From: Usitatibacteraceae bacterium
GTDB taxonomy: Bacteria; Pseudomonadota; Gammaproteobacteria; Burkholderiales; Usitatibacteraceae
DNA: 45,979 nucleotides
Assembly (NCBI GenBank): GCA_038901675.1
Contig: JBCKPM010000001.1
Location: 1-45,979 of the forward strand
Direction of reading: 5' to 3'
The position numbers and the translations under genes are program-made. Positions 20,612 to 44,626 of the stretch are shown here, in pieces (position 1 is the first letter of the stretch; each line of letters opens with the position of its first letter). The notes under the pieces were generated by a model. That model did no database searches. It saw only the letters and a list, made by a program, of their open reading frames with translations, and was not told the DNA's origin.

Positions 20612-21598
20612 CTATCCTGCACGCGCCAAGTAGAACCATTCGTTGCCGGGCAGCGCATTGGCGTCAGGGAACAAGATATAGGCGTCCTTTTCGGCTCGCA
20701 ATTCTTGCCCATCAGCGCGTGTGCCAATCAATTCTCCCGCGACCAGTTGGTCGAAACTCGCCCATTGGCGTGCAAAGCTATCTTGACTGGCGTGTTTGTC
20801 GATGACTTCGTACATGTGCAAGTGCTCGGCATCGGTCACTCGAGGCGGCATCGCACCGTCGCTGATGCGCAAGAAAGCGAGGCTATTGAGGATCGCGCGG
20901 TAGCCGACCGCCGGTGACGCCGCATCGTCGTGCTGACCGCATTCGAGGGTAATCGCGTAGCTCCCCACCGAGCGCATGTACTCGGTAGTACCGACGCCGT
21001 AACGCGGGTCAGTGTTGAGCGGATTCAAGTGTGATCCGGAGGTTCGCGCATGTTGCTGGCGCCGCGTGACGCCGAGCGCATAGGTGCTGAGCCAGCCATC
21101 GACAAACCGATGCACACCCAGATGCGCGGCCATTGCGCGCTCTTTTTCGAAGTGCCGAAATGGCTGCAAATCGCCATCGTTGTCTGGTGGACCTAACATT
21201 GCAAACGCCGGGTTTGACGCGCGCGTCGAATGCAGGTCAAGCAATACCTCGTGCTGGGCCAGCAATGGACACAACCAATTGGCGGCGTGATCCTCAAAAT
21301 CGACAGGGGACGCTGTCGGCGACAGGTTTCGATTCAAGTTGCGATCGCCGGTGCGTTCACCCTTCTGGTAGGCCAGCGGGTTGGCGATCGGCACGAAGGT
21401 CACATGACCTGCCACGATATTGAGTCGGCCGTGCTCGATATCGTCGAGCACCTTGCCAATCGCGAGCGTACCGCAGGTTTCGTTGCCGTGAACGGCACCG
21501 GTGACGATGATTTTTGGTCCGGGAAGTGTTCCCGTGAATTGGATAGATTTGAAGTACATGTACGAACACTGTTGAAAAATCGGAACCACTGGCAGCAA
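20612..21598 (-). CDS. succinylglutamate desuccinylase / aspartoacylase (AstE/AspA, M14-like zinc hydrolase) family protein
   Basis: PGPKIIVTGAVHGNETCG..FVPIANP is the family N-terminal zinc motif. The more likely start is the ATG at comp(21557..21559) (MYFKSIQF). Confidence 0.7.
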   Translation of the reverse strand: MLPVVPIFQQCSYMYFKSIQFTGTLPGPKIIVTGAVHGNETCGTLAIGKVLDDIEHGRLNIVAGHVTFVPIANPLAYQKGERTGDRNLNRNLSPTASPVDFEDHAANWLCPLLAQHEVLLDLHSTRASNPAFAMLGPPDNDGDLQPFRHFEKERAMAAHLGVHRFVDGWLSTYALGVTRRQQHARTSGSHLNPLNTDPRYGVGTTEYMRSVGSYAITLECGQHDDAASPAVGYRAILNSLAFLRISDGAMPPRVTDAEHLHMYEVIDKHASQDSFARQWASFDQLVAGELIGTRADGQELRAEKDAYILFPDANALPGNEWFYLARAG

Positions 21599-21638
21599 TC
21601 ACGCGTGCGCCTTGCCTATGACAGCGGCACCCGCTAAA

Positions 21639-21779
21639 GGGCACCTCTAAAAATTCACTGAAGCCGCGCTGGCGGCGTTGCAAAGCCGCTCAAAATGCTC
21701 ATGTACTACATGTACACTGCGCTTTTTCGCGACTTTGCGCCTTGCCATCATCAGCTTGATTGCATTTTTAGAGGTACCC
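21639..21779 (+). mobile_element. MITE family 1, copy 3 (141 bp)
   Basis: GGGCACCTCTAAAAATTCACTGAAGCC ... CATTTTTAGAGGTACCC with a perfect TAAA/TAAA duplication (21635-21638 and 21780-21783). It sits in the divergent region between the AstE-like gene and ddpX. Confidence 0.9.
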
Positions 21780-21840
21780 TAAAGTCACAGTTTACGCGGC
21801 CGCTGCAAGGCGCTGGCCGCCGAATCCGGAAAAAACCTTT

Positions 21841-22455
21841 ATGACTGCACCGACATTGCGCATCGAAGACCTCGCTGCGGAGCCAAATTTTTGCCGCCTG
21901 TCGCAACTGGACGGGTTACGCATCGATTTGCGCTACGGTAGCGCCGATAACTTTGCCGGACGCGATTTGTATGGCGATCTTGACTGCGCATGGCTGCACC
22001 GCGATGCGAGTGACGCGCTGGCCGCCGCACTCGCTTCGTTACAAGCTGAACACCCCAACCTTTCGCTATTGATCCTTGATGCACTGCGACCGCAACGGGT
22101 GCAAGAAGCGCTGTGGCAGGCGCTAGAGGGTACGCCGCTCACCACGTATCTTGCACATCCGACCAAAGGCTCGATACATTCGTTCGGCATGGCGGTGGAC
22201 GTGACGCTAATTGATGAAACGGGGCAAGAGCTAGACATGGGAACGCGTTTTGACGATCTGACGCAACTCTCGCACCCGGCATTTGAAAACCAGTTTCTCG
22301 CCGAAGGTCGCTTGACCCCCGTGCAGCTCGCCAATCGGCTTTTGTTACGACGGGTGATGACGCAAAACGGATTTCACGGCATCAGCACGGAATGGTGGCA
22401 CTTCGATTGCGGTGATCGTGACTTGGTCCGCGCGCAGTACCGGCGCGTTCTATAG
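21841..22455 (+). CDS. ddpX: D-alanyl-D-alanine dipeptidase (VanX/DdpX, M15D)
   Basis: 204-aa ORF with SIHSFGMAVDV and EWWHF motifs. No signal peptide. Confidence 0.85.
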   Translation: MTAPTLRIEDLAAEPNFCRLSQLDGLRIDLRYGSADNFAGRDLYGDLDCAWLHRDASDALAAALASLQAEHPNLSLLILDALRPQRVQEALWQALEGTPLTTYLAHPTKGSIHSFGMAVDVTLIDETGQELDMGTRFDDLTQLSHPAFENQFLAEGRLTPVQLANRLLLRRVMTQNGFHGISTEWWHFDCGDRDLVRAQYRRVL

Positions 22456-22471: not shown

Positions 22472-23959
22472 TTATCGGAATGCGGGTGCGCCGCCCGACC
22501 GCGCGACGCTATCAAGCAGGGCGTCGAGAATGGCCCGCCCGCCAGCGCGAATCGCGCGCTCATCGTTGATCATCGCGACCACGACATGTCGCTCTCCCAC
22601 CGCGTCGGTGACATAACCGGCGACCGCAACCACATTGCGCAGGCTGCCAGTCTTGACGCGCGCGGTCTCGGCGGCGGGGCTGTCTTTGAGGCGCGCCCGC
22701 ATCGAACCATCGATGGCGACAATGGGCAAGCTGGACAGAAACTCCGGTGCCCACTTGCTGCGATACGCTGCCTGCAATACCTTTGCCAATTGACGCGGTG
22801 TGATGCGTTCACTGCGGGAAAGGCCGGAGCCATTGTCAAGCACGAGCCCGGAGTCATCGATGGCCCGCTCGCGCAACCACGATCGCACTTCTTGCTCCGC
22901 GCTGGCGCTGCTTGACGTCGCACCAGGCGTATCGCGCGTTTCAGCGCTGCCGATGGTTCCGAGCGTGAGGTAGATCATGCGGGTGATGGTGTTGTCCGAG
23001 ATTTTGTTGATGTTACGAACCACTTCCGCGAGCGGCCGAGCTTGATGTTGTGCGAGCACGCGCAGTTGCGCTGACGGTGGTTGCGCGCCGCCTTCATCCG
23101 CGCGCAACTCTCTAACCCTGCCGGTGAATATGCCGCCCAACTCACGCCACAACTGGCGGAACAGGCGCTCGGTGTACTCAGCACGCTCCACCACATTCAG
23201 GCTGGTCGAGATCGCGCAATTTTTCGGAAACACGCCCTCCAAATAGACGCGCACTTCGTCGGCGCTGGCATAGACCACCGTTGGAATTTTCCAGCCGTCT
23301 TCCCACTTCGCGCAGTCGCGGTCTACCAGTGTCATGTTGGAAGTGACGGCGACGCCCTGCAACGCTGGCGTCAGTCGGATCTGAAAACCGTCGTCGCTCG
23401 AGTTGATATCGAACTGCACCAGATTGGTGTTAATCAGCAGCGCGTCGGGGATAACGTTGTAACAAAATTCAGGCGACTCATCGAACGGTGGCACGCCAAC
23501 ATCGATGCGCGACGGCCGAAAAAAATTGCGGTCCACCAGCAAGTCGCCGTCGAGTGCGCGAATGCCCTGGTGCCGCAGTGCTTGCAACATGCGCCGAAAA
23601 TCCTCCCACGTGATATCGGTATTGCCGACGCCGCGAAGGGCGAGGTCGCCCTTGAGCGCGCCGTCCACCAGCCGCGCCTGCGTGGTGATTTCCGTGCGAC
23701 TGCGGTAGTGGGGGCCTAGGCGCTCGAGTCCGACGATGCTGGTCAGAACTTTGATGGTCGACGCCGGCTGCATAGGCAGATCGGGCTGCTGCGTCCAGAT
23801 CAGCTTGTCGTCGGACAGTCGCAGCACCGTCACGCCCAGTGACGACGCCGGAAGCTCTGCCGCACGCAACATCGCATCGATCGGCGCCGGCAGTTGTGTG
23901 TACGCCGATCCCGCCCATCCGGCCATCAGCAGCGCACCCGCTACCCACATTCCTCGCAT
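22472..23959 (-). CDS. dacB: D-alanyl-D-alanine carboxypeptidase/endopeptidase, PBP4 family (S13)
   Basis: 495-aa ORF with a signal peptide, the active-site motif PASTIKV (SxxK), DNGSGLSR (SxN-like) and KTGSL (KTG). Confidence 0.88.
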   Translation of the reverse strand: MRGMWVAGALLMAGWAGSAYTQLPAPIDAMLRAAELPASSLGVTVLRLSDDKLIWTQQPDLPMQPASTIKVLTSIVGLERLGPHYRSRTEITTQARLVDGALKGDLALRGVGNTDITWEDFRRMLQALRHQGIRALDGDLLVDRNFFRPSRIDVGVPPFDESPEFCYNVIPDALLINTNLVQFDINSSDDGFQIRLTPALQGVAVTSNMTLVDRDCAKWEDGWKIPTVVYASADEVRVYLEGVFPKNCAISTSLNVVERAEYTERLFRQLWRELGGIFTGRVRELRADEGGAQPPSAQLRVLAQHQARPLAEVVRNINKISDNTITRMIYLTLGTIGSAETRDTPGATSSSASAEQEVRSWLRERAIDDSGLVLDNGSGLSRSERITPRQLAKVLQAAYRSKWAPEFLSSLPIVAIDGSMRARLKDSPAAETARVKTGSLRNVVAVAGYVTDAVGERHVVVAMINDERAIRAGGRAILDALLDSVARSGGAPAFR

Positions 23960-24060: not shown

Positions 24061-24078
24061 TGGTAGTATATTGGTATT
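24061..24078 (+). promoter_or_regulatory. NagQ-type operator candidate: TGGTAGT-ATAT-TGGTATT
   Basis: Two direct heptamer repeats separated by 4 nt, located in the dacB / TonB-receptor divergent region. The same architecture recurs at three other loci in the window. Confidence 0.65.
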
Positions 24079-24172: not shown

Positions 24173-26977
24173 GTGAAACTCAAACAAATTGCACCGCTCG
24201 TCGCGTTGATATGCCTCGCAGGTTCAGCGCTCGCACAGGCACCGGCGGCGGCTCCCACCGTCCCGCCCACCATCAAGCCCGAAAAGATTGAAGTGACGGG
24301 TTCGAGCATCAAACGCGTGCAAGAGGACAGTGCATCGCCCCTGCAAATCATTACGCGTGAAGAAATCGAGCGCGAAGGCATTGTCAGCGCCGAGCAATTG
24401 GTCATGCTGATTTCGGCCAACGCTGCCGGTGCTGACAACATGTCCTCCAACGTCGCCTTCAGCGTCAACGTCAACGAGAATCGCAACAGCAACAGTGTGG
24501 CTAGCGCCAACTTGCGCGGCCTCGGTGCGGCCAGCACGCTCATCTTGTTGAACGGTCGTCGCATTTCGACACACGGCGCGCGTGGCAACGCGGTGGATCT
24601 GAATGCCATTCCATTGGCGGCAGTCGAACGCGTTGAAGTGCTGAAGGACGGTGCGTCGGCGATCTACGGAGCGGATGCCATCGGTGGCGTCATCAACTTC
24701 ATCATGCGCAAGGATTTCTCCGGCCTGCTGGCCACCGCATCGACCAACGTTACCCACGACGGTGGTGGCAAATTCACCCGCGCCTCCCTTGTGGCGGGCT
24801 TGGGCGACCTGGCCAAGGATCGCTTCAACATCGTCGCCAGCTATACGCTCGATCGCCAAGAAAAACTCCGTGGTGCCCAGCGGGGCTTCGTCAACGGCAA
24901 CCAGCCCAATCGCGGCCTGACGCCAGACACCGGCGGCGGACCATTCGCAACCCACAATTCGCTTGCAGGCTCGGCCATGGGTGTCAACCCGATCGGCTCA
25001 CCGATTATCGGTTCGTACACTTTGCCCGTGACCAACATTTTCATGAATCGCGCCAACCTGTTGAGTTTTCAGAATCGCTGCGACACGATTCAGGACTCAT
25101 TCCAGTATCGCGCTGATGTGCTCGGCCCCGCCTTTTACAACTCGGCGCGCGGTTGTTCCTACGACTACGGCAAACAGCGCGTGATCATCCAGCCGGTCGA
25201 CCGCCAAAACTTGGTCGCGCGCGGCGCGTGGGCGTTTGCACCCAACCATACGGCCATCGTTGAGTTGGTGGGTTCGCGTACGGAAGCGACCAATCAATTC
25301 GAAGAAGCGCAACTGACCGGTAGCATTGCGTTGGGCAGCGCCTATCCAGTCAACGGGCCCTTCTACACCAGCCTGCTGCCGTTCATCCCGACCTTCAATA
25401 ACAATCTGCCGATCGGTTACCGCTGGCGTTGTATGGCTTGCGGCAAGCGTGAAAGCACCAACGTCTCGACGGCGTTCCGCGCCATGGTCGCCCTCGAAGG
25501 CACGCTGTGGAAATACGACTACAAGATCGGCTACTCGCAGGCGGGCAATCGTGCCGGCTCGACGCTGACCAGCGGCTACTACTTCACCGTCCCCCTCAAT
25601 GCCGCCTTGGGCAGCGGTCTGATCAATCCATGGCTGCTGTCTGGCCAAACCCAAACGCCTGCCGCGATGGCGTTACTCGCAGCCGCCAGTGCCAGCGGAC
25701 AGTCGTTGTTTGGTGGCGAAGCGACCCTCAATCAGCTTGATGGCGCGCTGTCGGGCGAGATCTTCAATTTACCCGCAGGTGCCGTGTCTGCCGCTGTTGG
25801 CTTCGACTCGCGCAAGGAAACGTTCCGCTTCCGCAGCGACGCAACGACGGCGGCGATCAGCTTGGCACCATTCGACAGCGGCATCAATCTGGCCTCGCGT
25901 ACCATCAGAGCCACCTATGCCGAACTTTCGATCCCGATTCTGAAGTCGCTTGAAGTCACGGCCGCAGTGCGTAATGACCGTTACAGCGATTTTGGAAACA
26001 CCACCAACCCGAAGTACACCATCCGCTTCACACCGATCAAGCAGGTCGCCATTCGCGGATCGTACAACGAAGGCTTCCGTGCGCCGAGCTTCTTCCAGTT
26101 GTATTCGGTCGGTGGCCCAACGCCCTTGGCGCAAAACATCAACGATCCGATCCTGTGTGCGACCTTTGTCGCGAGCAACCCGAACTGCGGTATTCGTGTC
26201 GATCAGATCAGCGGCGGCAATCCGTTCCTGAAACCGGAAGTGTCCAAGCAGAATAACGTCGGCATCGTCGTCTCACCGACCGATTGGCTCGCCATCAGTA
26301 TTGACCGCTGGAAGGTTGAGCGCACCCAGCGCATCTTCCTGCTGACCGTCACGGGTGCCAACGGCGTACTGGCCAACTTCCAGACTTTCCCCGACAGCTT
26401 CGTTCGCAACGCCGCAGGCGCGCTGACCGCGATTCGCGCCGGCTACGTCAATGCCGACGGCGACATCGTGCGCGGCACTGAAGTCAGTGTCAACACCAAC
26501 TGGAAGGGATTCGGCGGCAACTTCAAGGCTGGCCTCGACGGCACCAAGATGGACAGCTACAAGTCGCGCGTGTTCAATACGCGTGATTATGTCGAAGCCG
26601 TCGGCGGTGCGTGGAATGCCTCCACCATTGTTCTGAAGTGGAAGCACACCGCGCGCATGACCTTCACCAAGGGTGTGTGGAGTGGGACCTTGTCGCAGAG
26701 CTACGCGTCGGGCTACAAAGACTTTGTGCCGGATGGCGTGGCATTCGCACCCGACTTCAAGACCGATGTGAAGAGCTACACGCTGTACAACATCTCAGGC
26801 ACTTACAAGGGCATCAAAAACCTGACGCTCATCGGTGGCATCCAGAATATTTTCAACAACGATCCGCCGTTCACCGCCGCCAACGTTGACTTCGCGCCAG
26901 GCACCGCATGGGACGCGCGTGTGGCCAATCCGCGTGGTCGCGCCCTCACGTTAAACTTGAGCTATCACTTCAAGTAG
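24173..26977 (+). CDS. TonB-dependent outer-membrane receptor
   Basis: GTG start preceded by AAGGAGAG. It has a signal peptide (LICLAGSALAQAP), a plug domain (IEVTGSSIKR..SPLQIITREEIEREG..NLRGLG..TLILLNGRR) and a long beta-barrel. Confidence 0.88.
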   Translation: MKLKQIAPLVALICLAGSALAQAPAAAPTVPPTIKPEKIEVTGSSIKRVQEDSASPLQIITREEIEREGIVSAEQLVMLISANAAGADNMSSNVAFSVNVNENRNSNSVASANLRGLGAASTLILLNGRRISTHGARGNAVDLNAIPLAAVERVEVLKDGASAIYGADAIGGVINFIMRKDFSGLLATASTNVTHDGGGKFTRASLVAGLGDLAKDRFNIVASYTLDRQEKLRGAQRGFVNGNQPNRGLTPDTGGGPFATHNSLAGSAMGVNPIGSPIIGSYTLPVTNIFMNRANLLSFQNRCDTIQDSFQYRADVLGPAFYNSARGCSYDYGKQRVIIQPVDRQNLVARGAWAFAPNHTAIVELVGSRTEATNQFEEAQLTGSIALGSAYPVNGPFYTSLLPFIPTFNNNLPIGYRWRCMACGKRESTNVSTAFRAMVALEGTLWKYDYKIGYSQAGNRAGSTLTSGYYFTVPLNAALGSGLINPWLLSGQTQTPAAMALLAAASASGQSLFGGEATLNQLDGALSGEIFNLPAGAVSAAVGFDSRKETFRFRSDATTAAISLAPFDSGINLASRTIRATYAELSIPILKSLEVTAAVRNDRYSDFGNTTNPKYTIRFTPIKQVAIRGSYNEGFRAPSFFQLYSVGGPTPLAQNINDPILCATFVASNPNCGIRVDQISGGNPFLKPEVSKQNNVGIVVSPTDWLAISIDRWKVERTQRIFLLTVTGANGVLANFQTFPDSFVRNAAGALTAIRAGYVNADGDIVRGTEVSVNTNWKGFGGNFKAGLDGTKMDSYKSRVFNTRDYVEAVGGAWNASTIVLKWKHTARMTFTKGVWSGTLSQSYASGYKDFVPDGVAFAPDFKTDVKSYTLYNISGTYKGIKNLTLIGGIQNIFNNDPPFTAANVDFAPGTAWDARVANPRGRALTLNLSYHFK

Positions 26978-28343: not shown

Positions 28344-28345
28344 CT

Positions 28346-28486: not shown

Positions 28487-28497
28487 AACTTTGCAAC

Positions 28498-28652: not shown

Positions 28653-29501
28653 TCACTTCGCCAAATGTATCGAGCCCATCTCATCCGCACGTTTCAACAC
28701 CGAGCCGCCGGAGGTCATCACTTCCAGAATCGCCGCAGTCTCCGCGTCGGGCGTACCGTCAAATGCGCTTTGCCGATATTTCAATTGAAACGCGCCGAGC
28801 ATGGCGCGCGTCGCCATGTCGAGCTCGCCGTTTTGCAGTGGCGAAAATCCATGTGCCTCGAGTTTTTGCTGAAACCACAACACGTTTGGCAACGTCGTTT
28901 CGTAATACGCTCTTTTCTCAGCAACCAATTTTGCGTCCGGCCACGGAATCAGCCCTTCGTCGGCCAAGCGCTTCCACGGAAAGCGCGGACCGGGGTCGGT
29001 CTTGCGCAACGGCGCGATGTCGCTGTGCCCAAGAATGCGTTCGGGCAGGATCCTGTGCTTCTTCACAATTTGTTTCACCAGCGCAATCACCAAATCGATT
29101 TGCGCTTTCGGAAAATCAAAAAATTCACGCCTATTGGGGCCGTCGCGATAGCCGATGTTGACGATCTCGATGCCAATCGATGCGGCATTGAGTTGCGTCT
29201 GGCCTTTCCATGAGCTGAGGCCCGCGTGATAGGCGCGGCGCGTGTCGTCGACCAACTGAAAAATCTTTGGCCCGTAATGTCCCGGCAAGTCGTTTGCATC
29301 GTCGGTCACCAAATAGTGGCTGCTGACCGCATCCTGAGTCAGCACGCGAAGTGATTTTGGATTGTCGATGGCGGTGTAGTGCAGTATCAGAAACTGTGCG
29401 CGGCTGTCCTGACTGACGGATGTGTAGGTGCGATCAATGTAGAGGGTTGAACAACCGCTGAGTGCGATTGCAATCAGCATCGCCAGAATGATTCTTGTCA
29501 T
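28653..29501 (-). CDS. amiD: N-acetylmuramoyl-L-alanine amidase, AmiD/AmpD (amidase_2) family lipoprotein with a C-terminal PG-binding domain
   Basis: Lipobox MTRIILAMLIAIALSGCS, amidase_2 core (LILHYTA..SSHYLV..AYHAG.S.W..LN..SIGIEI) and a C-terminal PGRP-like repeat. I chose the ATG at comp(29499..29501), preceded by AGGAAA. Confidence 0.85.
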   Translation of the reverse strand: MTRIILAMLIAIALSGCSTLYIDRTYTSVSQDSRAQFLILHYTAIDNPKSLRVLTQDAVSSHYLVTDDANDLPGHYGPKIFQLVDDTRRAYHAGLSSWKGQTQLNAASIGIEIVNIGYRDGPNRREFFDFPKAQIDLVIALVKQIVKKHRILPERILGHSDIAPLRKTDPGPRFPWKRLADEGLIPWPDAKLVAEKRAYYETTLPNVLWFQQKLEAHGFSPLQNGELDMATRAMLGAFQLKYRQSAFDGTPDAETAAILEVMTSGGSVLKRADEMGSIHLAK

Positions 29502-36619: not shown

Positions 36620-39600
36620 ATGACCTTCCACAAAAAACCCCTTGCCGCTGCCGTGTTGCTGACCCTGCTCGGTTTGAGCCCGGCCCTTGTCTACGCGCAA
36701 GCCGCACCCGTCGGCCAAAGCGCCGCTGAGGCGAAGAAAGCCGAGGACGATAAGAAGGCCGAAATCGCCAAGAAAGCGGCGGCGAAACAGCCCGCCCCGG
36801 ATACCATCATCGTTACCGGTATCCGCGCCTCGCTGGAAAAATCGCTGGACGTGAAACGCAATTCCGGTGCCAACGTGGAGGTCATCACCGCCGAGGACGT
36901 CGGCAAGATGCCGGACAAGAATCTCGCTGATTCGCTGCAGCGCTTACCCGGCGTGTCGGTGCGTACCGATTACGACGAAGCCGAAAAGGTATCGATTCGC
37001 GGCACCAATCCCGACATGAGCCTGATCCTGTTCAACGGCCATACGGTGAGTGGCGGCGATTGGTACGTCTCCGATCAATTCTCCAGCAGCCGCAGTACCA
37101 GCCTCAGTTTGATGCCGTCCTCCGTACTCAACCAAGCGATGGTCTACAAGACTTCTCAAGCCAACATCGTCGATGGCGGTCTGGCCGGCACCATCAACGT
37201 CACCACCCGCAAACCGTTGGATGAAAAGGCCGCTTTCGGTGGCGTGGCCAACATCGGTGGCGTCAAAGCAGATCTACCTTCCAAACTGTCCCACAACCTC
37301 AACGCTAGTCTGCACTGGAAGAACGAGGCCAATACGTTCGGCGTGATCGGCCAGGCGTTCGCCGAAAAGCGCTTCATGCGCCGCGATTCAGTCTCGCGCT
37401 TTGCCTACGGCACCAGCAGCGGCTGGGGCGAGATCAACACGGCCACGATGCTGGGGATCACCGACGCCTCGCTGGCGGGTAGCGGCTTGCGGGCGGCCGA
37501 CCTCAATGGGGTGCGCATGCCCGGCAGCATGAGCTCGGAATTTGTCGAGAGCGTACGCGATCGCCAGGGCGGCATGCTGGCGGTGCAGGTGCGGCCCAAC
37601 AGGGACTGGGACATTACGCTCACCGGCTTTCAGTCGGACATGAACGCCAACAACTATGGCCGCCTCACCTCCGGCGCGATGTATTCCATGTTGCTCGGCC
37701 GCGCGGAGCCGTTCGGCTCAACCGCCGCCACCGCGCTCACCACTAACTCGAATGGTCAGCGGGTGTACGCGCAAATTCGCAACCCGGTAATCGTCAACAC
37801 GGTGTCGAACTACGGCTTTCCGCTGCGGGTTTTGCAGAGCGCGGAGATTGTCTTTCCGGCGGGAACCAGGCCGCAGTACGTCGGCAATTCAGAAGCGTTC
37901 TATCGCGACGGTGCTGAGGCATCCAGCGGCTTCGTTGATCTGGATAGTCGGTGGCGCGTCAACGATGCACTCAGCATTCGCGCACTGGTCAGCTCCACCA
38001 AGGGCGTCGGCACCACCGCGCTCGATCAGGGGGCGACGTTTGCGCGCTACGGCACGGGAGTGACGTATCGGTTGAACGGGCTCTACGACGCGCCTGATGT
38101 GACCTATATCGGCGCGGGCGGAAATACACCGGTACTCAACGCCGACGGCAGCGGATATCGCTTTATCGGCCTGGGTGCATCGAGCGTCAAGACCATCGAC
38201 AAGGAGATCAGCTACGCACTCGACGCGACCTATAACGTGGGGTGGAATTTCCTCACCAGCCTGGAGGCCGGCTGGCGTTATGCCGATCACGAGCGCTTGC
38301 ACACGCGCTGGGCAGCGGCGCGACGTTCACCGACCCTGCCGACCCCGCCTGCGACCGGCTACGAAAGTTATCCGGCCAACTTCGGTGCCGGTCTGGGTGG
38401 CGGCAATTGGGATCGCACCGGTTTCTACCTCACGCCGGAAGTATTGCGCGCGTTCATCGCCACCCTGTTCAAGCCAACCACCGCTGCCTACGAGCGCCGT
38501 GTCGCCAACGAAATCGAACTGCGCGAGCAGCAGTCCGCGGCGTATCTGATGCAAAACCTCGAAGGCACCGCGTGGTCGGGGAACGTCGGCCTGCGTTTCG
38601 TTAAAACTCAGGTCAACGCCATGATCGTGACGCCGCTGCGCGCGGGGCTGTGCCCGCGCATCGAGCCCGGCGCGACGGTGACGCCATGCGCTGCCGTGCC
38701 CGATGCCATCAATACGGCGGGCGATGGCAGCAGCTACTTCGATGGCGTCGCGTGGAACCCGAACTCGGGCACCATCTATCGCAAAACGCCGATCGAGCGA
38801 ACCTTCACTGACGTGCTGCCGAGCCTGAATTTGCGTTACGAGATCGACAAGAATCTGATCGCACGTTTGGGTGCCAGCAAGACCATCGGCCGCCAGAACT
38901 ACAACATCATCGGTGCCGGTTTCACTGCTCGCGTGTGCAACGCGCAAGGCTGCACCGTCACGGGGCCTAATCCCAACCTGAAGCCAATGTACGCGCGCAA
39001 TCTCGATGCCTCGCTGGGTTGGTACTTCGCGCGCCGCTCGCTCGCACTGGTGAACGTATTCACCTCCAAGATCGATGGCTACATCAAGACCGGTGCCAAT
39101 CTGCAAAGCGAGACCATCGATCTGGTCGACCCGTTGGACGACGTGGTTAAGCCATTTTTTATCGTCTCATCTTCGCAGCAGGGGGCGTCGATCAGGGGCA
39201 TCGAACTGATGTTTGAGCGCCCCATCGCCTGGGGCTTCGGCGTCACCACCAACGTGAGCCGCGCCAAGACCAAAGTCGACGATGGCCGCCCGATGACCGG
39301 CGCATCCGACAAGACTGCCAACGTCGGGCTGTACTTTGAGGACGAAAAGTTCAGCGCGCGGCTGGTGTGGAACTACCGTGGCGAATACGTCGCCAGCACC
39401 ACCGCACCGGCTCCGACCGCCAATAGTCAATCCAACAGCACCATCCTCGGCGTGGTGCAACCCACTGCGCTCACCTGGGCGGCACCCGTGACCAACATGG
39501 CGCTGTCGCTCAACTACAGCATCAGCAAGAACCTGCGCGTGGCGCTCGATGTCACCAACCTCAATAACCCGGCGCGCGCGACCTATCGTTACAGCGAGGA

Positions 39601-39664
39601 AGAACCGCAAAAACTCGACGTCAGCGGCCGTCAGTATTACGTGACCTTGCGCTACCGCTTCTAG
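36620..39664 (+). CDS. TonB-dependent outer-membrane receptor (carbohydrate-type, with an N-terminal Lys/Ala-rich extension)
   Basis: ATG preceded by AGGAGA. It has a signal peptide ending VYAQA, a plug domain (IIVTGIRASLEKSLDVKR..VEVITAEDVGKMPDKNLADSLQRLPGV) and a C-terminal barrel ending YRF. Confidence 0.88.
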   Translation: MTFHKKPLAAAVLLTLLGLSPALVYAQAAPVGQSAAEAKKAEDDKKAEIAKKAAAKQPAPDTIIVTGIRASLEKSLDVKRNSGANVEVITAEDVGKMPDKNLADSLQRLPGVSVRTDYDEAEKVSIRGTNPDMSLILFNGHTVSGGDWYVSDQFSSSRSTSLSLMPSSVLNQAMVYKTSQANIVDGGLAGTINVTTRKPLDEKAAFGGVANIGGVKADLPSKLSHNLNASLHWKNEANTFGVIGQAFAEKRFMRRDSVSRFAYGTSSGWGEINTATMLGITDASLAGSGLRAADLNGVRMPGSMSSEFVESVRDRQGGMLAVQVRPNRDWDITLTGFQSDMNANNYGRLTSGAMYSMLLGRAEPFGSTAATALTTNSNGQRVYAQIRNPVIVNTVSNYGFPLRVLQSAEIVFPAGTRPQYVGNSEAFYRDGAEASSGFVDLDSRWRVNDALSIRALVSSTKGVGTTALDQGATFARYGTGVTYRLNGLYDAPDVTYIGAGGNTPVLNADGSGYRFIGLGASSVKTIDKEISYALDATYNVGWNFLTSLEAGWRYADHERLHTRWAAARRSPTLPTPPATGYESYPANFGAGLGGGNWDRTGFYLTPEVLRAFIATLFKPTTAAYERRVANEIELREQQSAAYLMQNLEGTAWSGNVGLRFVKTQVNAMIVTPLRAGLCPRIEPGATVTPCAAVPDAINTAGDGSSYFDGVAWNPNSGTIYRKTPIERTFTDVLPSLNLRYEIDKNLIARLGASKTIGRQNYNIIGAGFTARVCNAQGCTVTGPNPNLKPMYARNLDASLGWYFARRSLALVNVFTSKIDGYIKTGANLQSETIDLVDPLDDVVKPFFIVSSSQQGASIRGIELMFERPIAWGFGVTTNVSRAKTKVDDGRPMTGASDKTANVGLYFEDEKFSARLVWNYRGEYVASTTAPAPTANSQSNSTILGVVQPTALTWAAPVTNMALSLNYSISKNLRVALDVTNLNNPARATYRYSEEEPQKLDVSGRQYYVTLRYRF

Positions 39665-39704: not shown

Positions 39705-39865
39705 GGAGCCTGTCGGGCTTGGGGCGTCGAAAGCGAAAATCGACCCCAGCGCGGCCAGTTTTTGCCGGATTTGCAGCCCCATAGCCCAGCTATGGGGCAA
39801 CGGTGAAAAATGAACCGCTGCGGTCGATTTGCAGCCGACGATTCCCAAGTTCGACAGGCTCCTAG
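39702..39865 (+). mobile_element. MITE family 2, copy B (CTAG-flanked)
   Basis: CTAGGAGCCTGTCGGGCTTGGGGCGTCG ... CGACGATTCCCAAGTTCGACAGGCTCCTAG. The right-hand CTAG contains the TAG stop codon of the convergent SIS gene. Confidence 0.85.
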
Positions 39866-40887
39866 CGGGTCTTGGTCACTTTGGCGAGGTACTTCGGGCG
39901 GTCGGGGTCGTATCCGCGCGCGCGCGAAATCGCCTCGACCATCGGATAAAAACTCTGCACGATGGAAATCGGGTCGAGATCCGCAGATCCCGTCTCCACA
40001 ATCGGCAAATTGACGCCAGCCGTACCGGGCGGTGCCGCCAGCAGCACGCGCGCGCCGCGGTGCCGCATCTCGTCGGCCAGCGCCACCAAACCGGCATGCG
40101 CCGGTCCGCGCGGTGCGAACACCAAGAGCGGATAGCCGCGATCAATCAACACCATCGGCCCGTGCTTGACCTCCGCACCGGAGAAGGCCTCGGCCTGAAT
40201 GACGCACGTTTCCTTGAACTTGAGTGCCGCTTCCAACGCAACCGCATGTCCCGGGCCGCGGCCGATGACAAACATCTGTTCAGCGTCCTTCAATACCTCA
40301 ACGCCAGCCGACCAATCGGCGGACGCGGCGCGCGTCAGCGCATCCGGCAATGTGTGGATCGCCGCCTCCAGTGCGGCGTCCTGCTGCCACGCCGCCGTCA
40401 CGCGCGCACCGGCCACCAGTTGTGCGATAAAGCTCTTGGTCGCCGCCACGCTGCGCTCTTCGCCCGCGCACAACGGGAAGACCCAGCGAGAGACGTTGGC
40501 CAGCGGCGAATTCGCATCGTTCACAAACGCCGCCGTCGCCGCCCCACCGGCGTTGAAAAACGTCATCGGTGCAACCAAATCCGGACTCTGCCCAGATTGC
40601 GAGAACGCCGTAGCCAGCAAACCGTGCGTCTGAATGTTTGACTGATACAAGGTGATCAACGACATGGGCAACGACGTCACCAGCCGCCCAAGGCGCGCCA
40701 TGATCAGATAAGCCATGTAATGCGCAGCGTGATCCGAACTGCCGCGCGCGATGGTCAGGATAGATGTCGGCGAATTGTTGCGCAGCCAATCGCCGAACTC
40801 GCGGTAGGCGTCGGTTGGTGCTTGCAACTGCGCGGCGACCGCTGCCGGTGCTTCGCGAGCTTCGCGCAACATCAGACTGTCAGTCAT
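39862..40887 (-). CDS. SIS-domain glucosamine-6-phosphate deaminase/isomerase (NagB-II / AgaS-like)
   Basis: 341 aa with two SIS domains (ARGSSDHAA.Y.....; SQSG.SPD; IGRGP....ALE.ALK.KE). Operon with nagA. Confidence 0.8.
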   Translation of the reverse strand: MTDSLMLREAREAPAAVAAQLQAPTDAYREFGDWLRNNSPTSILTIARGSSDHAAHYMAYLIMARLGRLVTSLPMSLITLYQSNIQTHGLLATAFSQSGQSPDLVAPMTFFNAGGAATAAFVNDANSPLANVSRWVFPLCAGEERSVAATKSFIAQLVAGARVTAAWQQDAALEAAIHTLPDALTRAASADWSAGVEVLKDAEQMFVIGRGPGHAVALEAALKFKETCVIQAEAFSGAEVKHGPMVLIDRGYPLLVFAPRGPAHAGLVALADEMRHRGARVLLAAPPGTAGVNLPIVETGSADLDPISIVQSFYPMVEAISRARGYDPDRPKYLAKVTKTR

Positions 40888-40913: not shown

Positions 40914-42035
40914 CTAGGCAAGCAACTCGCCTTCGATCCACACGTCGTGCAACCTCAGATCGCCATCCAATCGCACCACGTCGGCCCACGCGCCAACATC
41001 GAGTCGACCGCGATCGGCGATACCCAAATAGTCGGCGGCGTTAGTCGACACGCGCCTTGACGCATCGATCAGATCGAGTCCGAGTTTGTCGACCAGGTTG
41101 CGTAGCGCCTCATCCATGGTCAACGTCGAACCTGCCAGCGTGCCATCCGCCAACCGCACACCACCCATGCACTTGGTGACCGTGTGTCGCCCAAGCCGAT
41201 ATTCGCCGTCGGGCATGCCCGCCGCGGCGGTGGAGTCGGTGACGCAAAACAGTTTTGGAATCGCACGCAGCGCGACGCGAATCGCTGCTGGATGCACGTG
41301 CAGCAGGTCGGGAATAATTTCAGCGTACTCGGCTTGCGAAAGCGCAGCACCGACCATGCCCGGCTTGCGATGGTGCATGCCGCTCATGGCGTTATACAAA
41401 TGTGTAAACCCTTTGGCGCCGAGCGCCATCGCTTCGGCACCTTCCTCAAACGTACCCGCCGTGTGACCCAGTTGCACCACAAACCCGGACGCGACTAGCG
41501 CGGCAATCATTTGCATGTTGCCCGGCACTTCCGGAGCCAGCGTAATCAATCGAATCGGCGCGATGCGATGCAAGCGCATCAACTCGTCGTGCTGCAACGG
41601 TCGCGCAAAATCGGGCTGCGCTCCCAGCATGGCAGCGTTGATGTAAGGGCCTTCAAGGTGCACGCCCAGCACCCGCGCCGTTTTTGGCGGACGCGTTTGG
41701 CAAGTTCGCCGGAGCGCAACGAAAGCGGCCTCAAGCTCGTCGGCCGGTGCGGTCATCGTGGTCGCCAACAACGACGTCGTGCCATGCGTGGCGTGCAGCT
41801 CGGCAATGTGCGCCGCCGCGTCGCCACCCTCCATGATGTCGCGACCGCCACCGCCGTGTACGTGGGTATCGATAAAGCCGGGCAGCAGGATCGGCTTGCC
41901 GAGGTCACGCACGCGCAACACGTCGATGGGCTCGCCTTCAATCGACGAGATGCGTCCATCAGGTGCGATGTGCAGGCGACCGTCAACAAACCTGCCTTGC
42001 CAAAGAATTAACCCTGAAAGTTCAGCCGCCTTCAT
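40914..42035 (-). CDS. nagA: N-acetylglucosamine-6-phosphate deacetylase
   Basis: 373 aa with PGFIDTHVHGGGG, HLEGPY, THLYNAM and the amidohydrolase fold. Confidence 0.9.
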   Translation of the reverse strand: MKAAELSGLILWQGRFVDGRLHIAPDGRISSIEGEPIDVLRVRDLGKPILLPGFIDTHVHGGGGRDIMEGGDAAAHIAELHATHGTTSLLATTMTAPADELEAAFVALRRTCQTRPPKTARVLGVHLEGPYINAAMLGAQPDFARPLQHDELMRLHRIAPIRLITLAPEVPGNMQMIAALVASGFVVQLGHTAGTFEEGAEAMALGAKGFTHLYNAMSGMHHRKPGMVGAALSQAEYAEIIPDLLHVHPAAIRVALRAIPKLFCVTDSTAAAGMPDGEYRLGRHTVTKCMGGVRLADGTLAGSTLTMDEALRNLVDKLGLDLIDASRRVSTNAADYLGIADRGRLDVGAWADVVRLDGDLRLHDVWIEGELLA

Positions 42036-42056: not shown

Positions 42057-42824
42057 TCACTCGCGCCGCAACTCAGCGACGAAATCATAGTAGTCGCTGC
42101 GACAGTACGAATGCGTCAGCTCGACGGCGCGCCCGGTGGTGTCGTAGCCAACACGCGTAATGAACAACACTGCTTGCCCCGGCGCAATTCCCAGTTGCGC
42201 GGCGAGCTTGGTCGGCGCGTTCATGGCGCGGATGTGTTGCATGGCGCGTACCGGCACGTGGCGGACACTTTCAAGATACAAATACAGCGAGCCTTCGATC
42301 TCGGTCGGCCGCGGCACCACGCTTTGTGGCAACACACTCACTTCGTACGCCATCACCACGTCGTCGGCCAAGCGCAGGCGCTCGAGGCGCGCCACCTTGG
42401 TCTTCGCGGTAATCGCTAAGCTCGCCTGTTCGTCGGCCGATGGTCGCGTTATCGCGCGCTTTAGCCAACGCGAACTTGGCGTGTAACCGCGCCGCGATAA
42501 TTCCTCGGAAAAACTCGACAGCCGCGACAGCGGCTGCTCAAAGCGCGGCGCGATGTAGTTGCCCGACCCCTGGCGGCGCACGATGAGTCCTTGATCAACC
42601 AATTGATCAATCGCCTTGCGCGCGGTGACGCGTGACACGCCGAGCGAATCGGACAACAGGCGCTCAGACGGAAGCGCCTGAGCGACCTGGTATTTGCCAT
42701 CCCGAATCGCGGTCGCAATTTTGCGCGCCAGCTGCACGTACAGGGGCGAGCTGTCGTGTGCGTCGAACTTAATTCCTTTGTTGGCAGACAAGAATTGCCT
42801 GGTCATTGTTCGCATACTTTCCAA
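42057..42824 (-). CDS. nagQ: GntR/HutC-family transcriptional regulator (NagQ-like)
   Basis: N-terminal winged HTH (PLYVQLARKIATAIRDGKY..ALPSERLLSDSLGVSRVTARKAIDQL) plus a C-terminal UTRA domain. First gene of the nagQ-nagA-SIS operon. Confidence 0.8.
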   Translation of the reverse strand: MESMRTMTRQFLSANKGIKFDAHDSSPLYVQLARKIATAIRDGKYQVAQALPSERLLSDSLGVSRVTARKAIDQLVDQGLIVRRQGSGNYIAPRFEQPLSRLSSFSEELSRRGYTPSSRWLKRAITRPSADEQASLAITAKTKVARLERLRLADDVVMAYEVSVLPQSVVPRPTEIEGSLYLYLESVRHVPVRAMQHIRAMNAPTKLAAQLGIAPGQAVLFITRVGYDTTGRAVELTHSYCRSDYYDFVAELRRE

Positions 42825-42882
42825 GTCGAGCCGCGCGACTGCAATTTTGCGAATTGCCAGTCAAACGCGGGCAATATTGGAT

Positions 42883-42900
42883 AATACCAATTAGATACCA
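42883..42900 (-). promoter_or_regulatory. NagQ-type operator candidate: TGGTATC-TAAT-TGGTATT
   Basis: Read on the minus strand, 59 nt upstream of the nagQ ORF start, in the region divergent with the SBP gene. Confidence 0.7.
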
Positions 42901-42997
42901 AAACAAGCAGCCGCAAGCGGCTTAAATTTCAACGGCGGGCGAGCTGAACGATGCGGCAATCGCACTGATGGTCGCGCCATAGCGCTACGCTACACTG

Positions 42998-44626
42998 ATG
43001 CCCGTCGCGATGTTTGCAAGGACTATCATGCCAACCCAATCGATCCATTCTCAATTTTTTCTCACCGCAGTGGTCGCTATTGCCTTGCTTGCCCCGCCGG
43101 TTGAAGCGAAAACCTTTCGCTGGTCCTCCAAAGGCGACGTCGTCACCCAGGACCCGCACGGTCTAGACGAGGGCTTCACCCGATCCATCAACGCGCTGGT
43201 GTATGAGCGCTTGTATCAGCCGGGCAAGGACATGTCACCGACGCCGTGGTTGGCCGTGTCGAGCAAACTGGTGAGTCCGACCAAACGCGTCGTCACACTG
43301 CGTAAGGACGTCAAGTTCCACGATGGCAGCACGTTCACAGCAGACGATGTGGTGTTCTCGTTCGAGCGCGCGGCGAAATCCCGACAGTTCAAGACCTACG
43401 CGCTGCCGGCCGGTGTGCCAAAAAAAATAGATGACGTCACGGTGGAGTTCACCATGCCGCAACCGAATCCCGTTAGCCATATTTCGATGTCGGAAGTGCC
43501 AATCATGAGCCGCGCTTGGTCAGAGAAAAACAGCGCCGTGGCGGCACAGGTTTTCACCAACAAGGAAGTGACCTATGCGTCGCGCAACGCGATGGGAACA
43601 GGGCCCTACAAGTTGGTGGTGTTCGAGCCGGGAATCCGCACGGTGCACACCAAGAACCCCGATTGGTGGGGCATCAAGGACGGTCGCTTTGAGAGCAACA
43701 TCGAGCGCATCGAATACCGCCCCATTACCAGCGATGCGACGCGCATGGCGGCATTGAAGTCGGGCGCACTCGATCTGGTGCTCGACCCGAGCCCGCAAGA
43801 TATCGCGCGCCTGAAAGCCGACCGCGAACTCAAAGTATGGGAAGGCGATGAGACACGCGTCATCACCATCGCCATGGATCAGGCACGCGACGAGCCGCTG
43901 TTTACGGACGTGAAAGGCAAGAACCCGTTCAAGGATCGCCGCGTGCGACTCGCCATGTATCAAGCGATCGACATTGAGGCGATCAAAACGCAGGTCATGC
44001 GCGGGCTCGCCACGCCAACGGCGATTCCTTTCCCCAACCCAAAGGGCGAAGGCATCCCGGCCGCGTTTGAAAAGCGACATCCCTATGACGTCGCGGCGGC
44101 CGTCAAGCTGCTGACCGAGGCGGGCTACCCGAAGGGGTTTGGGTTTACCTTGCACTGCCCGAATGATCGCTACGTCAACGACGAAAAAATCTGCGTCGCA
44201 CTCGCGGGAATGTGGGCTCGCCTGGGCTTGAACGTGAAAGTCGACGCCATGCCGAAGGCACAGTACTTTGCGCGTACGCCGAAGCAAGAGTTCTCGGTGT
44301 GCATGCAAGGCTGGGGCGATAACAATCGCGATGCCATGTTTACGCTCAAACCTTTATTTCACAGCAATAACGGCAAGGGTGCAGGCGAGGCCAACTATGG
44401 CAACTTCAAGAACGCCGACGTAGACCGGCTGATCGCCGCCGCCGAAGTGGAGATGGATTCCAAGAAACGCCAGACGCTAATCAATGAGGCGGTTGAAATT
44501 CTGCAACGCGAAGTTCACGTTATTCCCCTGCATCGACAGGTCATTCCGTGGGTGTCGCGCGCCAATGTTTCGCTGATTCATCGCTCGGACAACGAAATCG
44601 CGCCGCTGTGGATCAAGCTCCGGTAG
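42998..44626 (+). CDS. ABC-transporter substrate-binding protein, family 5 (peptide/opine/nickel type), with no adjacent permease genes
   Basis: 542-aa ORF with a signal peptide (LTAVVAIALLAPPVEA) and a typical SBP_bac_5 core. The likely start is the ATG at 43028. Confidence 0.8.
   Translation: MPVAMFARTIMPTQSIHSQFFLTAVVAIALLAPPVEAKTFRWSSKGDVVTQDPHGLDEGFTRSINALVYERLYQPGKDMSPTPWLAVSSKLVSPTKRVVTLRKDVKFHDGSTFTADDVVFSFERAAKSRQFKTYALPAGVPKKIDDVTVEFTMPQPNPVSHISMSEVPIMSRAWSEKNSAVAAQVFTNKEVTYASRNAMGTGPYKLVVFEPGIRTVHTKNPDWWGIKDGRFESNIERIEYRPITSDATRMAALKSGALDLVLDPSPQDIARLKADRELKVWEGDETRVITIAMDQARDEPLFTDVKGKNPFKDRRVRLAMYQAIDIEAIKTQVMRGLATPTAIPFPNPKGEGIPAAFEKRHPYDVAAAVKLLTEAGYPKGFGFTLHCPNDRYVNDEKICVALAGMWARLGLNVKVDAMPKAQYFARTPKQEFSVCMQGWGDNNRDAMFTLKPLFHSNNGKGAGEANYGNFKNADVDRLIAAAEVEMDSKKRQTLINEAVEILQREVHVIPLHRQVIPWVSRANVSLIHRSDNEIAPLWIKLR

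Follow-up and report, generated by a model that had tools for sequence, protein, structure and literature searches.

Published work places the regulator NagQ in alpha-, beta- and some gammaproteobacteria and assigns to it a motif of direct TGGTATT repeats and a core regulon of nagA and nagB (PMC4494728, PMC5343134). The Xanthomonas NagQ acts as a repressor and is inactivated when N-acetylglucosamine (GlcNAc) is present; the concept of the carbohydrate utilization locus containing TonB-dependent transporters (CUT locus) is cited in the same work, which also proposes, on indirect evidence, that NixC imports products of peptidoglycan degradation (PMC4173781). The Tannerella forsythia operon, arranged lytB-ampG-ybbC/namZ-murT-murK-murQ (PMC5388701), has been shown experimentally to serve the uptake of fragments of foreign walls (PMC5388701, PMC7670621). 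Soils and waters contain a large reserve of organic carbon and nitrogen in the form of peptidoglycan, and the outer-membrane uptake of wall fragments by Gram-negative bacteria is essentially unexplained, the indirect one for NixC being the only proposal that we found. Here we describe a 45,979-nt stretch of DNA from a Usitatibacteraceae bacterium (assembly GCA_038901675.1, contig JBCKPM010000001.1, positions 1 to 45,979; hereafter the window), in which two TonB-dependent transporters (TBDTs), a pathway for N-acetylmuramic acid (MurNAc) and a set of wall-degrading enzymes lie together with four NagQ-type operators. We think it probable, judging from the sequence, that this locus forms a NagQ regulon dedicated to fragments of the cell wall (peptidoglycan).

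The GlcNAc CUT system of Xanthomonas campestris comprises the repressors NagQ and NagR, NagP, NagA, NagB-II, NagK-II and the Nix TBDTs and glycosidases. The locus shares with it a GntR-type NagQ regulator (a repressor there), direct TGGTATT operators, a core of nagA and nagB-II, and TBDTs that are co-regulated with an amino-sugar pathway. It differs in what surrounds this core. NagP, NagR, chitinase and N-glycan glycosidase are all missing from the window, and the regulon holds instead MurQ, an AmpG of Bacteroidota type, a GHL10 protein, AmiD and an exported LdcA. Moreover, the Xanthomonas TBDTs are under NagR and not NagQ (PMC5343134), whereas both TBDTs of the window carry NagQ-type boxes.

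The observation of four direct-repeat sites is confirmed. When both strands of the window were scanned with the exact pattern TGGTANNNNNNTGGTAT, i.e. TGGTA-N6-TGGTAT, four matches were obtained, against none in 100 dinucleotide-preserving shuffles (mean 0.00) and a chance expectation of ∼0.01 from base composition. These are the sites that a first-pass annotation of this DNA had described as TGGTAnn-N4-TGGTATn, and all are exact matches at the positions it gave. Each is intergenic and co-oriented with its downstream gene, as read from the sequence, and they lie upstream of the four transcription units that had been proposed, with the start of TBDT1 corrected from 24071 to 24173:

24061..24078, plus strand: NagQ-type operator 1, TGGTAGTATATTGGTATT (exact match 24061-24077, TGGTAGTATATTGGTAT), upstream of the TBDT1-ldcA unit and divergent from dacB.
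35765..35782, minus strand: NagQ-type operator 2, TGGTATTCTATTGGTATT, a perfect consensus (exact match 35766-35782, TGGTATTCTATTGGTAT), 39 nt upstream of murQ.
36373..36390, plus strand: NagQ-type operator 3, TGGTAGCGAAGTGGTATT (exact match 36373-36389, TGGTAGCGAAGTGGTAT), upstream of TBDT2.
42883..42900, minus strand: NagQ-type operator 4, TGGTATCTAATTGGTATT (exact match 42884-42900, TGGTATCTAATTGGTAT), upstream of nagQ-nagA-nagB-II and divergent from the solute-binding protein (SBP) gene and its Gate-domain neighbor.

A looser search for TGGTATT-N4-TGGTATT with at most three mismatches returned 10 matches in the window against 1.1 expected. The four operators carry 0-2 mismatches and are the best of these, along with a single 1-mismatch site at 17126-17143. 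This fifth candidate was rejected; it falls within the first codons of a small 50-residue open reading frame (ORF), on the opposite strand, and was therefore treated as chance.

The distance from operator to start codon is ∼95 nt for operator 1 (GTG start of TBDT1, 24173), 60-80 nt for operator 4 and nagQ, and 230 nt for operator 3 and TBDT2, of which 142 nt belong to an inserted repeat element missing from the closest related genome. Site 1 overlaps a -10-like TATATT at 24067-24072, for which a consensus scan gives TCCACA-17-TATATT; site 3 overlaps a promoter-like TAGACA-18-TATTGT in the same kind of scan, and the second repeat of site 4 runs, by eye, into TATTAT. The resemblance of the TATT in the second repeat to a -10 element raises the question of whether AT-rich promoter DNA could have inflated the matches, so that the four heptamer pairs would be chance or artefacts of promoter composition. 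The shuffles speak against this, and so does the conservation of the sites.

We compared the window with related betaproteobacterial loci (L001-L020, of which L017 is from Massilia) and with metagenome contigs from a TBDT1-anchored scan (among them L085-L095), in all ∼330 kb from genomes and 537 kb from metagenomes, allowing at most two mismatches. The nearest genome is that of another Usitatibacteraceae bacterium (GCA_038901695.1; Betaproteobacteria, Nitrosomonadales in the NCBI taxonomy), which is 87-98% identical in nucleotides and is not the same sequence. The boxes recurred in more than 20 related Burkholderiales and metagenome loci and were almost confined to orthologous promoters:

Upstream of murQ, the same or a near-identical box: L001, L002, L004, L005, L007, L008, L012, L013, L017 and L020.
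Upstream of TBDT2-type genes, as the variant TGGTAG(C/T)nAAGTGG(T/C)AT(T/C): L001, L004, L005 and L013.
Upstream of nagQ: L001/L084 and L008; upstream of kinase-nagQ: L010 and L011.
Between dacB and TBDT1-type genes: L085, L086, L088, L089 and L090 (identical 18-mer) and L011 (variant).

In a set of 24 distinct orthologous sites, which lie upstream of murQ, nagQ and genes of the TBDT1 and TBDT2 types, neither TGGT core varies and the two repeats keep a constant phase of 11 bp; the consensus is TGGTA(T/G)(T/C)nnA(T/C/G)TGGTATT, a tandem repeat and not a palindrome. Five metagenome contigs carry site 1 unchanged although their TBDT1 proteins are only 51-83% identical, and in an alignment of the dacB-TBDT1 spacer from six genomes, where mean identity is 50%, the 20 columns ATTGGTAGTATATTGGTATT are invariant, which makes them a clear phylogenetic footprint. 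Off-target boxes in the relatives were a conserved near-match within the SBP gene and one box within the TBDT coding sequence of L104 and L105. The SBP-internal near-match, TGGTAATGGGGCGGTATT, has 2-3 mismatches and is found in three genomes (window 43713-43730, minus strand; L001 at 1174; L008 at 3208); it probably reflects coding conservation rather than an operator. The shuffles and the comparison with related loci both speak for the sites. Together with the recurrence of the same architecture at a distant alphaproteobacterial locus with a homologous regulator, described next, they exclude chance as far as sequence analysis reaches.

The candidate regulator is encoded directly downstream of operator 4:

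42057..42824, minus strand: nagQ, GntR/HutC-family regulator with a UTRA effector domain (Pfam PF00392, 59.9 bits; PF07702, 128.9 bits); its start is probably the ATG at 42815 or 42806.

Two lines of evidence support its assignment to the NagQ group. First, as the earlier call of a GntR regulator in a nagQ-nagA-SIS operon had it, this GntR/UTRA protein is co-operonic with nagA and nagB-II, with box 4 upstream of the operon, and its best solved relatives are the GlcNAc regulators YvoA/NagR of Bacillus subtilis and DasR. The accompanying statement that the NagQ operator consists of direct TGGTATT repeats agrees with the published motif (PMC4494728, PMC5343134). Secondly, its more distant relatives sit at similar loci. 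Among the best 120 database relatives, which belong to Burkholderiales or to metagenome-assembled genomes, identity never falls below 67%. A tblastn search against annotated plasmids and chromids found regulators 47-48% identical in Sinorhizobium meliloti (48%) and Ruegeria, in nagK-gntR-SIS-nagA operons divergent from murQ and a sugar ATP-binding cassette (ABC) transporter, and the Sinorhizobium spacer between murQ and nagK-gntR-nagB-nagA holds two boxes, TGGTATTTTTTTGGCATT and TGGTATTTTTTTGGTATC. Because these homologues lie at loci like that of the window regulator, in Sinorhizobium with the same boxes, the regulator fits into the NagQ group. Some GntR regulators linked to murQ are of another type, however. 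In Burkholderia stagnalis (L083, 6112-7693) a murQ-like gene lies directly upstream of a 44% identical GntR regulator, and no TGGTATT-type box was found within 14.7 kb; other operators therefore exist.

The Sinorhizobium/Ruegeria-type locus also resembles the window in its murQ, BadF kinase, SIS deaminase and nagA genes and in its two TGGTATT-N4-TGGTATT-type boxes in a divergent promoter. It differs in that uptake is by a sugar ABC transporter and that TBDT, AmpG and periplasmic wall hydrolases and peptidases are absent, so that it looks like a locus for the use of monosaccharides (MurNAc/GlcNAc) and not for the processing of polymers or fragments. The presence of murQ under NagQ boxes is thus no novelty by itself.

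What distinguishes the window is the set of genes downstream of the other three operators. Operator 2 lies upstream of an operon with the order murQ-ampG-HGSNAT-like-GHL10-kinase-amiD:

34845..35726, minus strand: murQ, MurNAc-6-phosphate etherase, cytoplasmic (TIGR00274, 303.7 bits, barely above the cutoff of 302; NF003915, 361 bits).
33501..34811, minus strand: AmpG-family muropeptide permease of the major facilitator superfamily, Bacteroidota (T. forsythia) type, inner membrane (AmpG subfamily model, 195 bits; cutoff 350).
32268..33449, minus strand: polytopic inner-membrane protein of the HGSNAT/NagX/MurT family (NagX model, 159 bits; cutoff 480).
30487..32307, minus strand: GHL10-domain lipoprotein, putative lytic transglycosylase or muramidase (Pfam PF02638, 200.5 bits; lipobox LLGAC, read from the sequence).
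29582..30499, minus strand: BadF/BcrAD-type sugar kinase (GlcNAc and/or MurNAc kinase), cytoplasmic (Pfam BcrAD_BadFG; weak NagK_SO3507 match).
28653..29573, minus strand: AmiD-like MurNAc-L-alanine amidase lipoprotein (Amidase_2 and PG_binding_1 domains; lipobox ALSGC, read from the sequence); the start is probably at MTRIIL, near 29501.

Operators 1 and 3 precede the two TBDT genes, the first of them in one unit with ldcA, and operator 4 precedes nagQ with the two genes of the regulon core:

24173..26977, plus strand: TBDT1, outer membrane (plug and barrel domains; GTG start with ribosome-binding site AAGGAG; signal peptide read from the sequence).
27207..28343, plus strand: LdcA-family LD-carboxypeptidase with a twin-arginine (Tat) export signal (Peptidase_S66 N- and C-terminal domains; TIGR01409, 20 bits, cutoff 16.7; motif TRRQLL).
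36620..39664, plus strand: TBDT2, outer membrane, of the Xanthomonas/Caulobacter carbohydrate type (TIGR01782, 498.6 bits, cutoff 310; plug and barrel domains; N-terminus reads as a signal peptide).
40914..42035, minus strand: nagA, GlcNAc-6-phosphate deacetylase, cytoplasmic (TIGR00221, 241.9 bits; cutoff 225.65).
39862..40887, minus strand: nagB-II-type SIS glucosamine-6-phosphate deaminase, cytoplasmic (two Pfam SIS stretches; NagB_SO3506, 266 bits; equivalog cutoff 430).

The GHL10 protein matches Cwp19 (PDB 5oq2) at E 5.8e-64, and Cwp19 is a peptidoglycan lytic transglycosylase with a GHL10 domain (PMC6016235). PDB relatives of the kinase are a Sulfolobus hexokinase and the MurNAc/GlcNAc kinase 8zo3, and it is 25-28% identical to kinases at the MurK position. 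Most of the gene calls of the first-pass annotation hold, namely those of MurQ, AmpG, GHL10, BadF kinase, AmiD-like amidase, Tat-exported LdcA, DdpX, PBP4, NagA, SIS deaminase, two TBDTs and a peptide SBP; it had left the gene at 20612-21598 unnamed and the Gate gene at 44736-45974 out of account.

This gene content bears on a second alternative, that of a classic NagQ regulon for chitin or GlcNAc in which MurQ and the wall hydrolases would be incidental passengers. It was in the context of GlcNAc and chitin utilization that NagQ regulons were defined (PMC5343134), chitin operons often contain NagX-family proteins (PMC9007349), and TBDT2 is of a carbohydrate type. Yet the main ORFs of the window encode no chitinase or hexosaminidase (GH18, GH19, GH20), no NagP and no GlcNAc phosphotransferase system, and all genes outside the core are specific to the wall: a MurNAc etherase, a MurNAc-L-Ala amidase, LD- and DD-peptidases, a D-Ala-D-Ala dipeptidase and a Cwp19-like GHL10 protein. 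This set is, moreover, kept as a block across families. Most of the betaproteobacterial loci fetched (L001-L020) retain murQ-ampG-(NagX-like)-GHL10-kinase-amiD fully or nearly so, and in the Massilia and Janthinobacterium loci the regulator lies directly upstream of murQ and ddpX follows amiD, while no NagX-like gene was detected there and no TBDT gene fell inside the flanks retrieved for these two genera. We therefore regard a chitin regulon as very improbable.

The murQ operon most resembles, to judge from its genes, the MurNAc scavenging operon of T. forsythia, which would be its closest functional analogue. Both have an AmpG of the same clade, with related Bacteroidales/Tannerellaceae loci 56-64% identical, and in both a single operon combines wall hydrolases with MurQ, a BadF-type kinase and a MurT-family membrane protein (35% identity). 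A Porphyromonadaceae locus has the order lytB-ampG-murT-murK-murQ with a 473-aa ORF, without an NCBIfam match, at the ybbC/namZ position between ampG and murT, which is the order known from T. forsythia. The T. forsythia system differs in being governed by the hybrid two-component activator GppX and not by a GntR repressor, in having no nagA/nagB module and no described TBDT, and in having NamZ and LytB in place of GHL10 and AmiD; no ORF for a NamZ/YbbC exo-muramidase was found in the window, where the GHL10 lipoprotein fills the hydrolase slot. It also serves another purpose, MurNAc auxotrophy (biosynthesis) and not catabolism. The window AmpG matches the E. coli AmpG model weakly (112 bits, cutoff 756), and beyond the related Burkholderiales its nearest relatives are in Verrucomicrobia (Cephaloticoccus) and Bacteroidales, at 56-67% identity (loci L015-L080). 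Since it is closer to these proteins than its weak E. coli match would imply, a lateral transfer of the scavenging-type permease, or of the whole module, between Bacteroidota and Proteobacteria is suggested.

The membrane protein between ampG and the GHL10 gene had been called an HGSNAT-like acyltransferase; the family stands, and the acyltransferase function becomes one of two candidates. It has no equivalog-level match to NagX (SO_3504), scoring 159 bits against a cutoff of 480, and the MurT-position protein of the Bacteroidota locus L031 (lytB-ampG-ORF-murT-murK-murQ), to which it is 35% identical, reaches much the same score on that model (143 bits). It aligns with human HGSNAT at E 1e-19, and its His45, which is invariant in five aligned homologues including the Bacteroidota MurT-position protein, falls on the catalytic His297, the acetyl-carrying histidine (PMC9007349). 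NagX has been proposed as a transmembrane glucosamine N-acetyltransferase and is a distant relative of TfMurT (PMC9007349). Since the window protein stands equally near to MurT and NagX, it could be either a transmembrane N-acetyltransferase acting on periplasmic amino sugars or a MurNAc permease. Some relatives have a second GHL10 paralogue upstream of murQ (L004, 5840-8805; L012; L013), and the one in L004 has a DUF5009 membrane protein as its partner. This pair, together with the NagX-like/GHL10 pair within the operon, hints at a functional pairing of acyltransferase-like membrane proteins with GHL10 enzymes.

A third alternative is that the locus recycles the cell's own wall under an amino-sugar repressor, the TBDTs serving another GlcNAc substrate (chitooligosaccharides, glycans) or recapturing leaked fragments. 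Homologues of AmpG, AmiD, LdcA, MurQ and NagA also form the usual set for self-recycling, as in E. coli, which uses AmpG, AmpD/AmiD, LdcA, NagZ, AnmK, MurQ, NagA and Mpl and where MurNAc-6-phosphate is likewise fed into the GlcNAc-6-phosphate pathway. E. coli LdcA is cytoplasmic, whereas the window LdcA carries a Tat signal and would be exported. In E. coli these genes are scattered; in the window they are clustered and carry NagQ-type boxes, and the cluster takes in TBDTs but lacks NagZ, AnmK and Mpl. E. coli murQ is controlled by the RpiR-type regulator MurR (PMC9177960). The locus is, furthermore, catabolic in its layout, with MurQ, NagA and NagB-II leading to fructose-6-phosphate and with Mpl, AmgK/MurU and AnmK missing from the window, its AmpG falls in the clade of the T. 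forsythia scavenging permease and not in the proteobacterial housekeeping type, and the window holds neither a chitin-specific enzyme nor a GlcNAc permease. In many genomes TBDT genes lie within or beside the murQ operon with a common operator. They accompany it in at least 10 related loci (L001, L002, L004, L005, L008, L010-L014), and L014 and L092 have a TBDT immediately after murQ, the order murQ-TBDT-ampG being seen in one locus. Own-wall recycling is for these reasons an unlikely explanation.

The reading of the locus as a NagQ regulon for peptidoglycan fragments should nevertheless be taken with some caution, since several points weigh against it, some of which favor own-wall recycling. 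The substrates of the TBDTs cannot be read from sequence, and in Xanthomonas and Caulobacter the TBDTs of GlcNAc regulons carry GlcNAc or chitooligosaccharides, while the nagA phenotype there arises partly from self-recycling through AmpG (PMC4173781, PMC13046382). The core enzymes, as said, are those of E. coli-type recycling. Both the kinase and the SIS deaminase score below equivalog cutoffs. Only four transcription units have a co-oriented box, and ddpX, dacB, the M14-like gene and the SBP-Gate pair have no such operator of their own; the earlier proposal that everything here is under the repressor is thus too broad. It may apply to the four units, and for ddpX, dacB, the M14/AstE gene and SBP-Gate the link is one of synteny. 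Finally, the route from outer-membrane uptake to glycolysis had been called complete, which it is not: Pfam and NCBIfam scans of the main ORFs of the window found no NagZ-type glycosidase, AnmK, Mpl or MpaA. Lacking NagZ and AnmK, the encoded pathway has to draw on genes from outside the window; these two and Mpl may be encoded in other parts of the genome.

With these reservations the following model can be proposed for a wall-fragment regulon; binding by the window regulator, its effector and the TBDT substrates we infer from gene content and operators. NagQ, a GntR/HutC repressor, would bind the direct TGGTAnn repeats, which are 11 bp, or one helical turn, apart. The sites lie over or just beside the -10 element of what would be four promoters (TBDT1-ldcA, the murQ operon, TBDT2 and nagQ-nagA-nagB-II), so that binding would block transcription. 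Muropeptides or short glycan strands would cross the outer membrane via TBDT1 and TBDT2. In the periplasm the GHL10 lipoprotein would cut glycan strands and the AmiD-like lipoprotein would remove stem peptides, which the Tat-exported LdcA would trim and PBP4 would trim or un-crosslink. GlcNAc-(anhydro)MurNAc would then be imported by the T. forsythia-type AmpG, with the HGSNAT-like protein contributing either MurNAc import or re-acetylation of glucosamine. The BadF kinase would make the 6-phosphates, and MurQ, NagA and NagB-II would convert them to fructose-6-phosphate, while GlcNAc-6-phosphate or glucosamine-6-phosphate would release NagQ and induce the whole set. The peptide part might be handled by DdpX, the M14-like enzyme and SBP-Gate. 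The gap in this scheme is the glycosidase that splits the imported disaccharide, which would be encoded outside the window, as would AnmK, needed if the products are anhydro sugars.

Two TBDTs, AmpG, the MurT/NagX-like protein, GHL10, AmiD, LdcA, PBP4 and NagQ, clustered and with shared operators, make up a component set like that of a CUT locus or a polysaccharide utilization locus, in which TBDT, inner-membrane transporter, degradative enzymes and regulator are all represented. Such a set would be suited to feeding on the walls of other bacteria, as opposed to recapturing the cell's own fragments. We put forward only tentatively, and consider somewhat doubtful in its entirety, the combined reading in which TBDT1 and TBDT2 are dedicated importers of foreign muropeptides or glycan strands in a 'necromass' feeding system of soil betaproteobacteria, the HGSNAT-like enzyme restores N-acetyl groups to de-acetylated (lysozyme-resistant) wall sugars in the periplasm and thereby allows its partner GHL10 to cut them, and SBP and Gate form a new uptake route for stem peptides.

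The first-pass annotation knew of no description of this combination as a unit. No description of a MurQ/AmpG/GHL10/AmiD/LdcA block with TBDTs under NagQ boxes was found in the literature searched, and to that extent the whole arrangement seems new; its elements are each known (NagQ boxes, GlcNAc-regulon TBDTs, the T. forsythia operon, the alphaproteobacterial murQ-NagQ pairing), and both murQ under NagQ boxes in Sinorhizobium and the NixC proposal (PMC4173781) precede it. The locus offers two concrete candidate importers, predicted to be co-regulated with an unambiguous MurNAc pathway, and it is kept in cultivable relatives (Massilia, Janthinobacterium, Usitatibacter); its simple four-site circuit lends itself to direct tests. 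It also supplies a genomic context for three poorly understood families, the GHL10 proteins, the NagX/MurT membrane proteins and the Gate-domain SpmAB-like proteins.

The genes to the left of TBDT1 are linked to the locus by synteny:

22472..23959, minus strand: dacB, PBP4-type DD-carboxypeptidase/endopeptidase, exported by a Sec signal (TIGR00666, 212.6 bits; cutoff 107.8).
21841..22455, plus strand: ddpX-like D-Ala-D-Ala dipeptidase, cytoplasmic (Peptidase_M15, 105 bits); linked by synteny only.
20612..21598, minus strand: AstE/AspA-type (M14-clan) metallopeptidase-like protein, cytoplasmic (PF24827, 66.8 bits); linked by synteny only.

Divergence of dacB from TBDT1 is seen in L011, L085, L086 and L088-L090, and dacB is present in the Massilia locus L017. 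In L085, L086 and L088 ddpX is syntenic and the M14-like gene adjoins it (72-77% identity); the M14-like gene was not detected in ampG-anchored loci, few of which reach past ddpX or dacB. The gene ldcA stays paired with a TBDT in L002, L004, L008, L010, L011 and L085-L095. The TBDT1-anchored metagenome contigs have the order M14-like(-), ddpX(+), dacB(-), TBDT1(+), ldcA(+), AmpH-like serine hydrolase(-), amiD(-), from which it follows that the left-hand genes are syntenic in close relatives and that the window has lost the AmpH-like gene. This gene (PF00144, Tat-like signal) lies between amiD and ldcA in most relatives, e.g. L085 8552-9994 and L004 16011-17462; tblastn found no trace of it in the window, where the amiD-ldcA junction (28344-28652) holds only a repeat element. 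Immediately to the left of the locus is a tRNA gene (20464-20535, minus strand), with 76 nt between it and the M14-like stop codon, and the G+C content gives no obvious island signature.

At the right-hand end, divergent from nagQ, are two further genes:

42998..44626, plus strand: family-5 (peptide/opine type) SBP with a Sec signal (SBP_bac_5, 278 bits); no adjacent ABC permease.
44736..45974, plus strand: inner-membrane protein with two Gate (nucleoside-recognition, SpmA/SpmB-like) domains (Pfam Gate, two stretches), beyond the end of the region annotated earlier.

The nearest solved relatives of the SBP are HbpA/DppA/GsiB-like, and a specifically MppA-like identity was rejected, HbpA, DppA and GsiB-type proteins all outscoring MppA. 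The SBP is divergent from nagQ also in L001/L084 and L008. In the window the Gate protein is thus paired with an orphan family-5 binding protein; its gene adjoins SBP/nagQ in L008, L010, L011 and L084, and in Massilia L017 (19995-21227) it adjoins dacB, an arrangement that echoes the dacB-spmA-spmB operon of Bacillus. In L084, which is GCA_038901695.1, nagA (10772-11894) is split by the gene calls into one piece of 308 residues and another of 81, suggesting a frameshift or an assembly error there; the window nagA is intact.

Some features of the operator regions deserve mention. Just upstream of operator 1, at 24017-24044, is a 14-bp tandem duplication (TTTTGGTGACGTAT, twice) that is present as a single copy in the five related contigs aligned. 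The neighboring block TGTTGTATTTT is nearly invariant in all six aligned sequences, with one T-for-A change in L090, and may be part of the dacB or TBDT1 promoter or a site for a second regulator. The ∼590 bp between operators 2 and 3 (35783-36372) hold no convincing gene and gave no Rfam match; within them CGGACATTACTGCTTTG is directly repeated at 35919-35935 and 35943-35959. Rfam found no riboswitch in the long TBDT2 leader, the search returning a tRNA only.

The insertion in that leader is one of several copies of a ∼142-bp repeat with terminal inverted repeats (GGGCACCTCTAAAAATT...AATTTTTAGAGGTGCCC), of which the window has four with 89-96% identity and one diverged:

11390-11544: repeat copy.
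21639-21779: repeat copy.
28345-28487: repeat copy.
36424-36566: repeat copy, between operator 3 and the TBDT2 start codon and therefore probably in the 5' leader.
∼17215-17355: diverged copy.

The closest related genome is without the 36424-36566 copy and has instead one between nagB-II and TBDT2. The repeat looks like an active miniature mobile element.

The small ORF in which the rejected fifth site falls (16994-17146, minus strand) encodes MNTNQIPVASQITVNQACELAQTETQCRTELELLIEAQLQLVGGGDVPCW and is preceded by a good ribosome-binding site. The stretch ELxxxIxxxLxLVGG in the product is similar to a double-glycine leader and is followed by a very short core, GDVPCW. The ORF adjoins a gene for a LuxR-family regulator (15957-16919) and lies near one for a ClpP-like SDH-type protease (18605-19912), and by its sequence the product could be a signalling peptide or the precursor of a ribosomally synthesized and post-translationally modified peptide.

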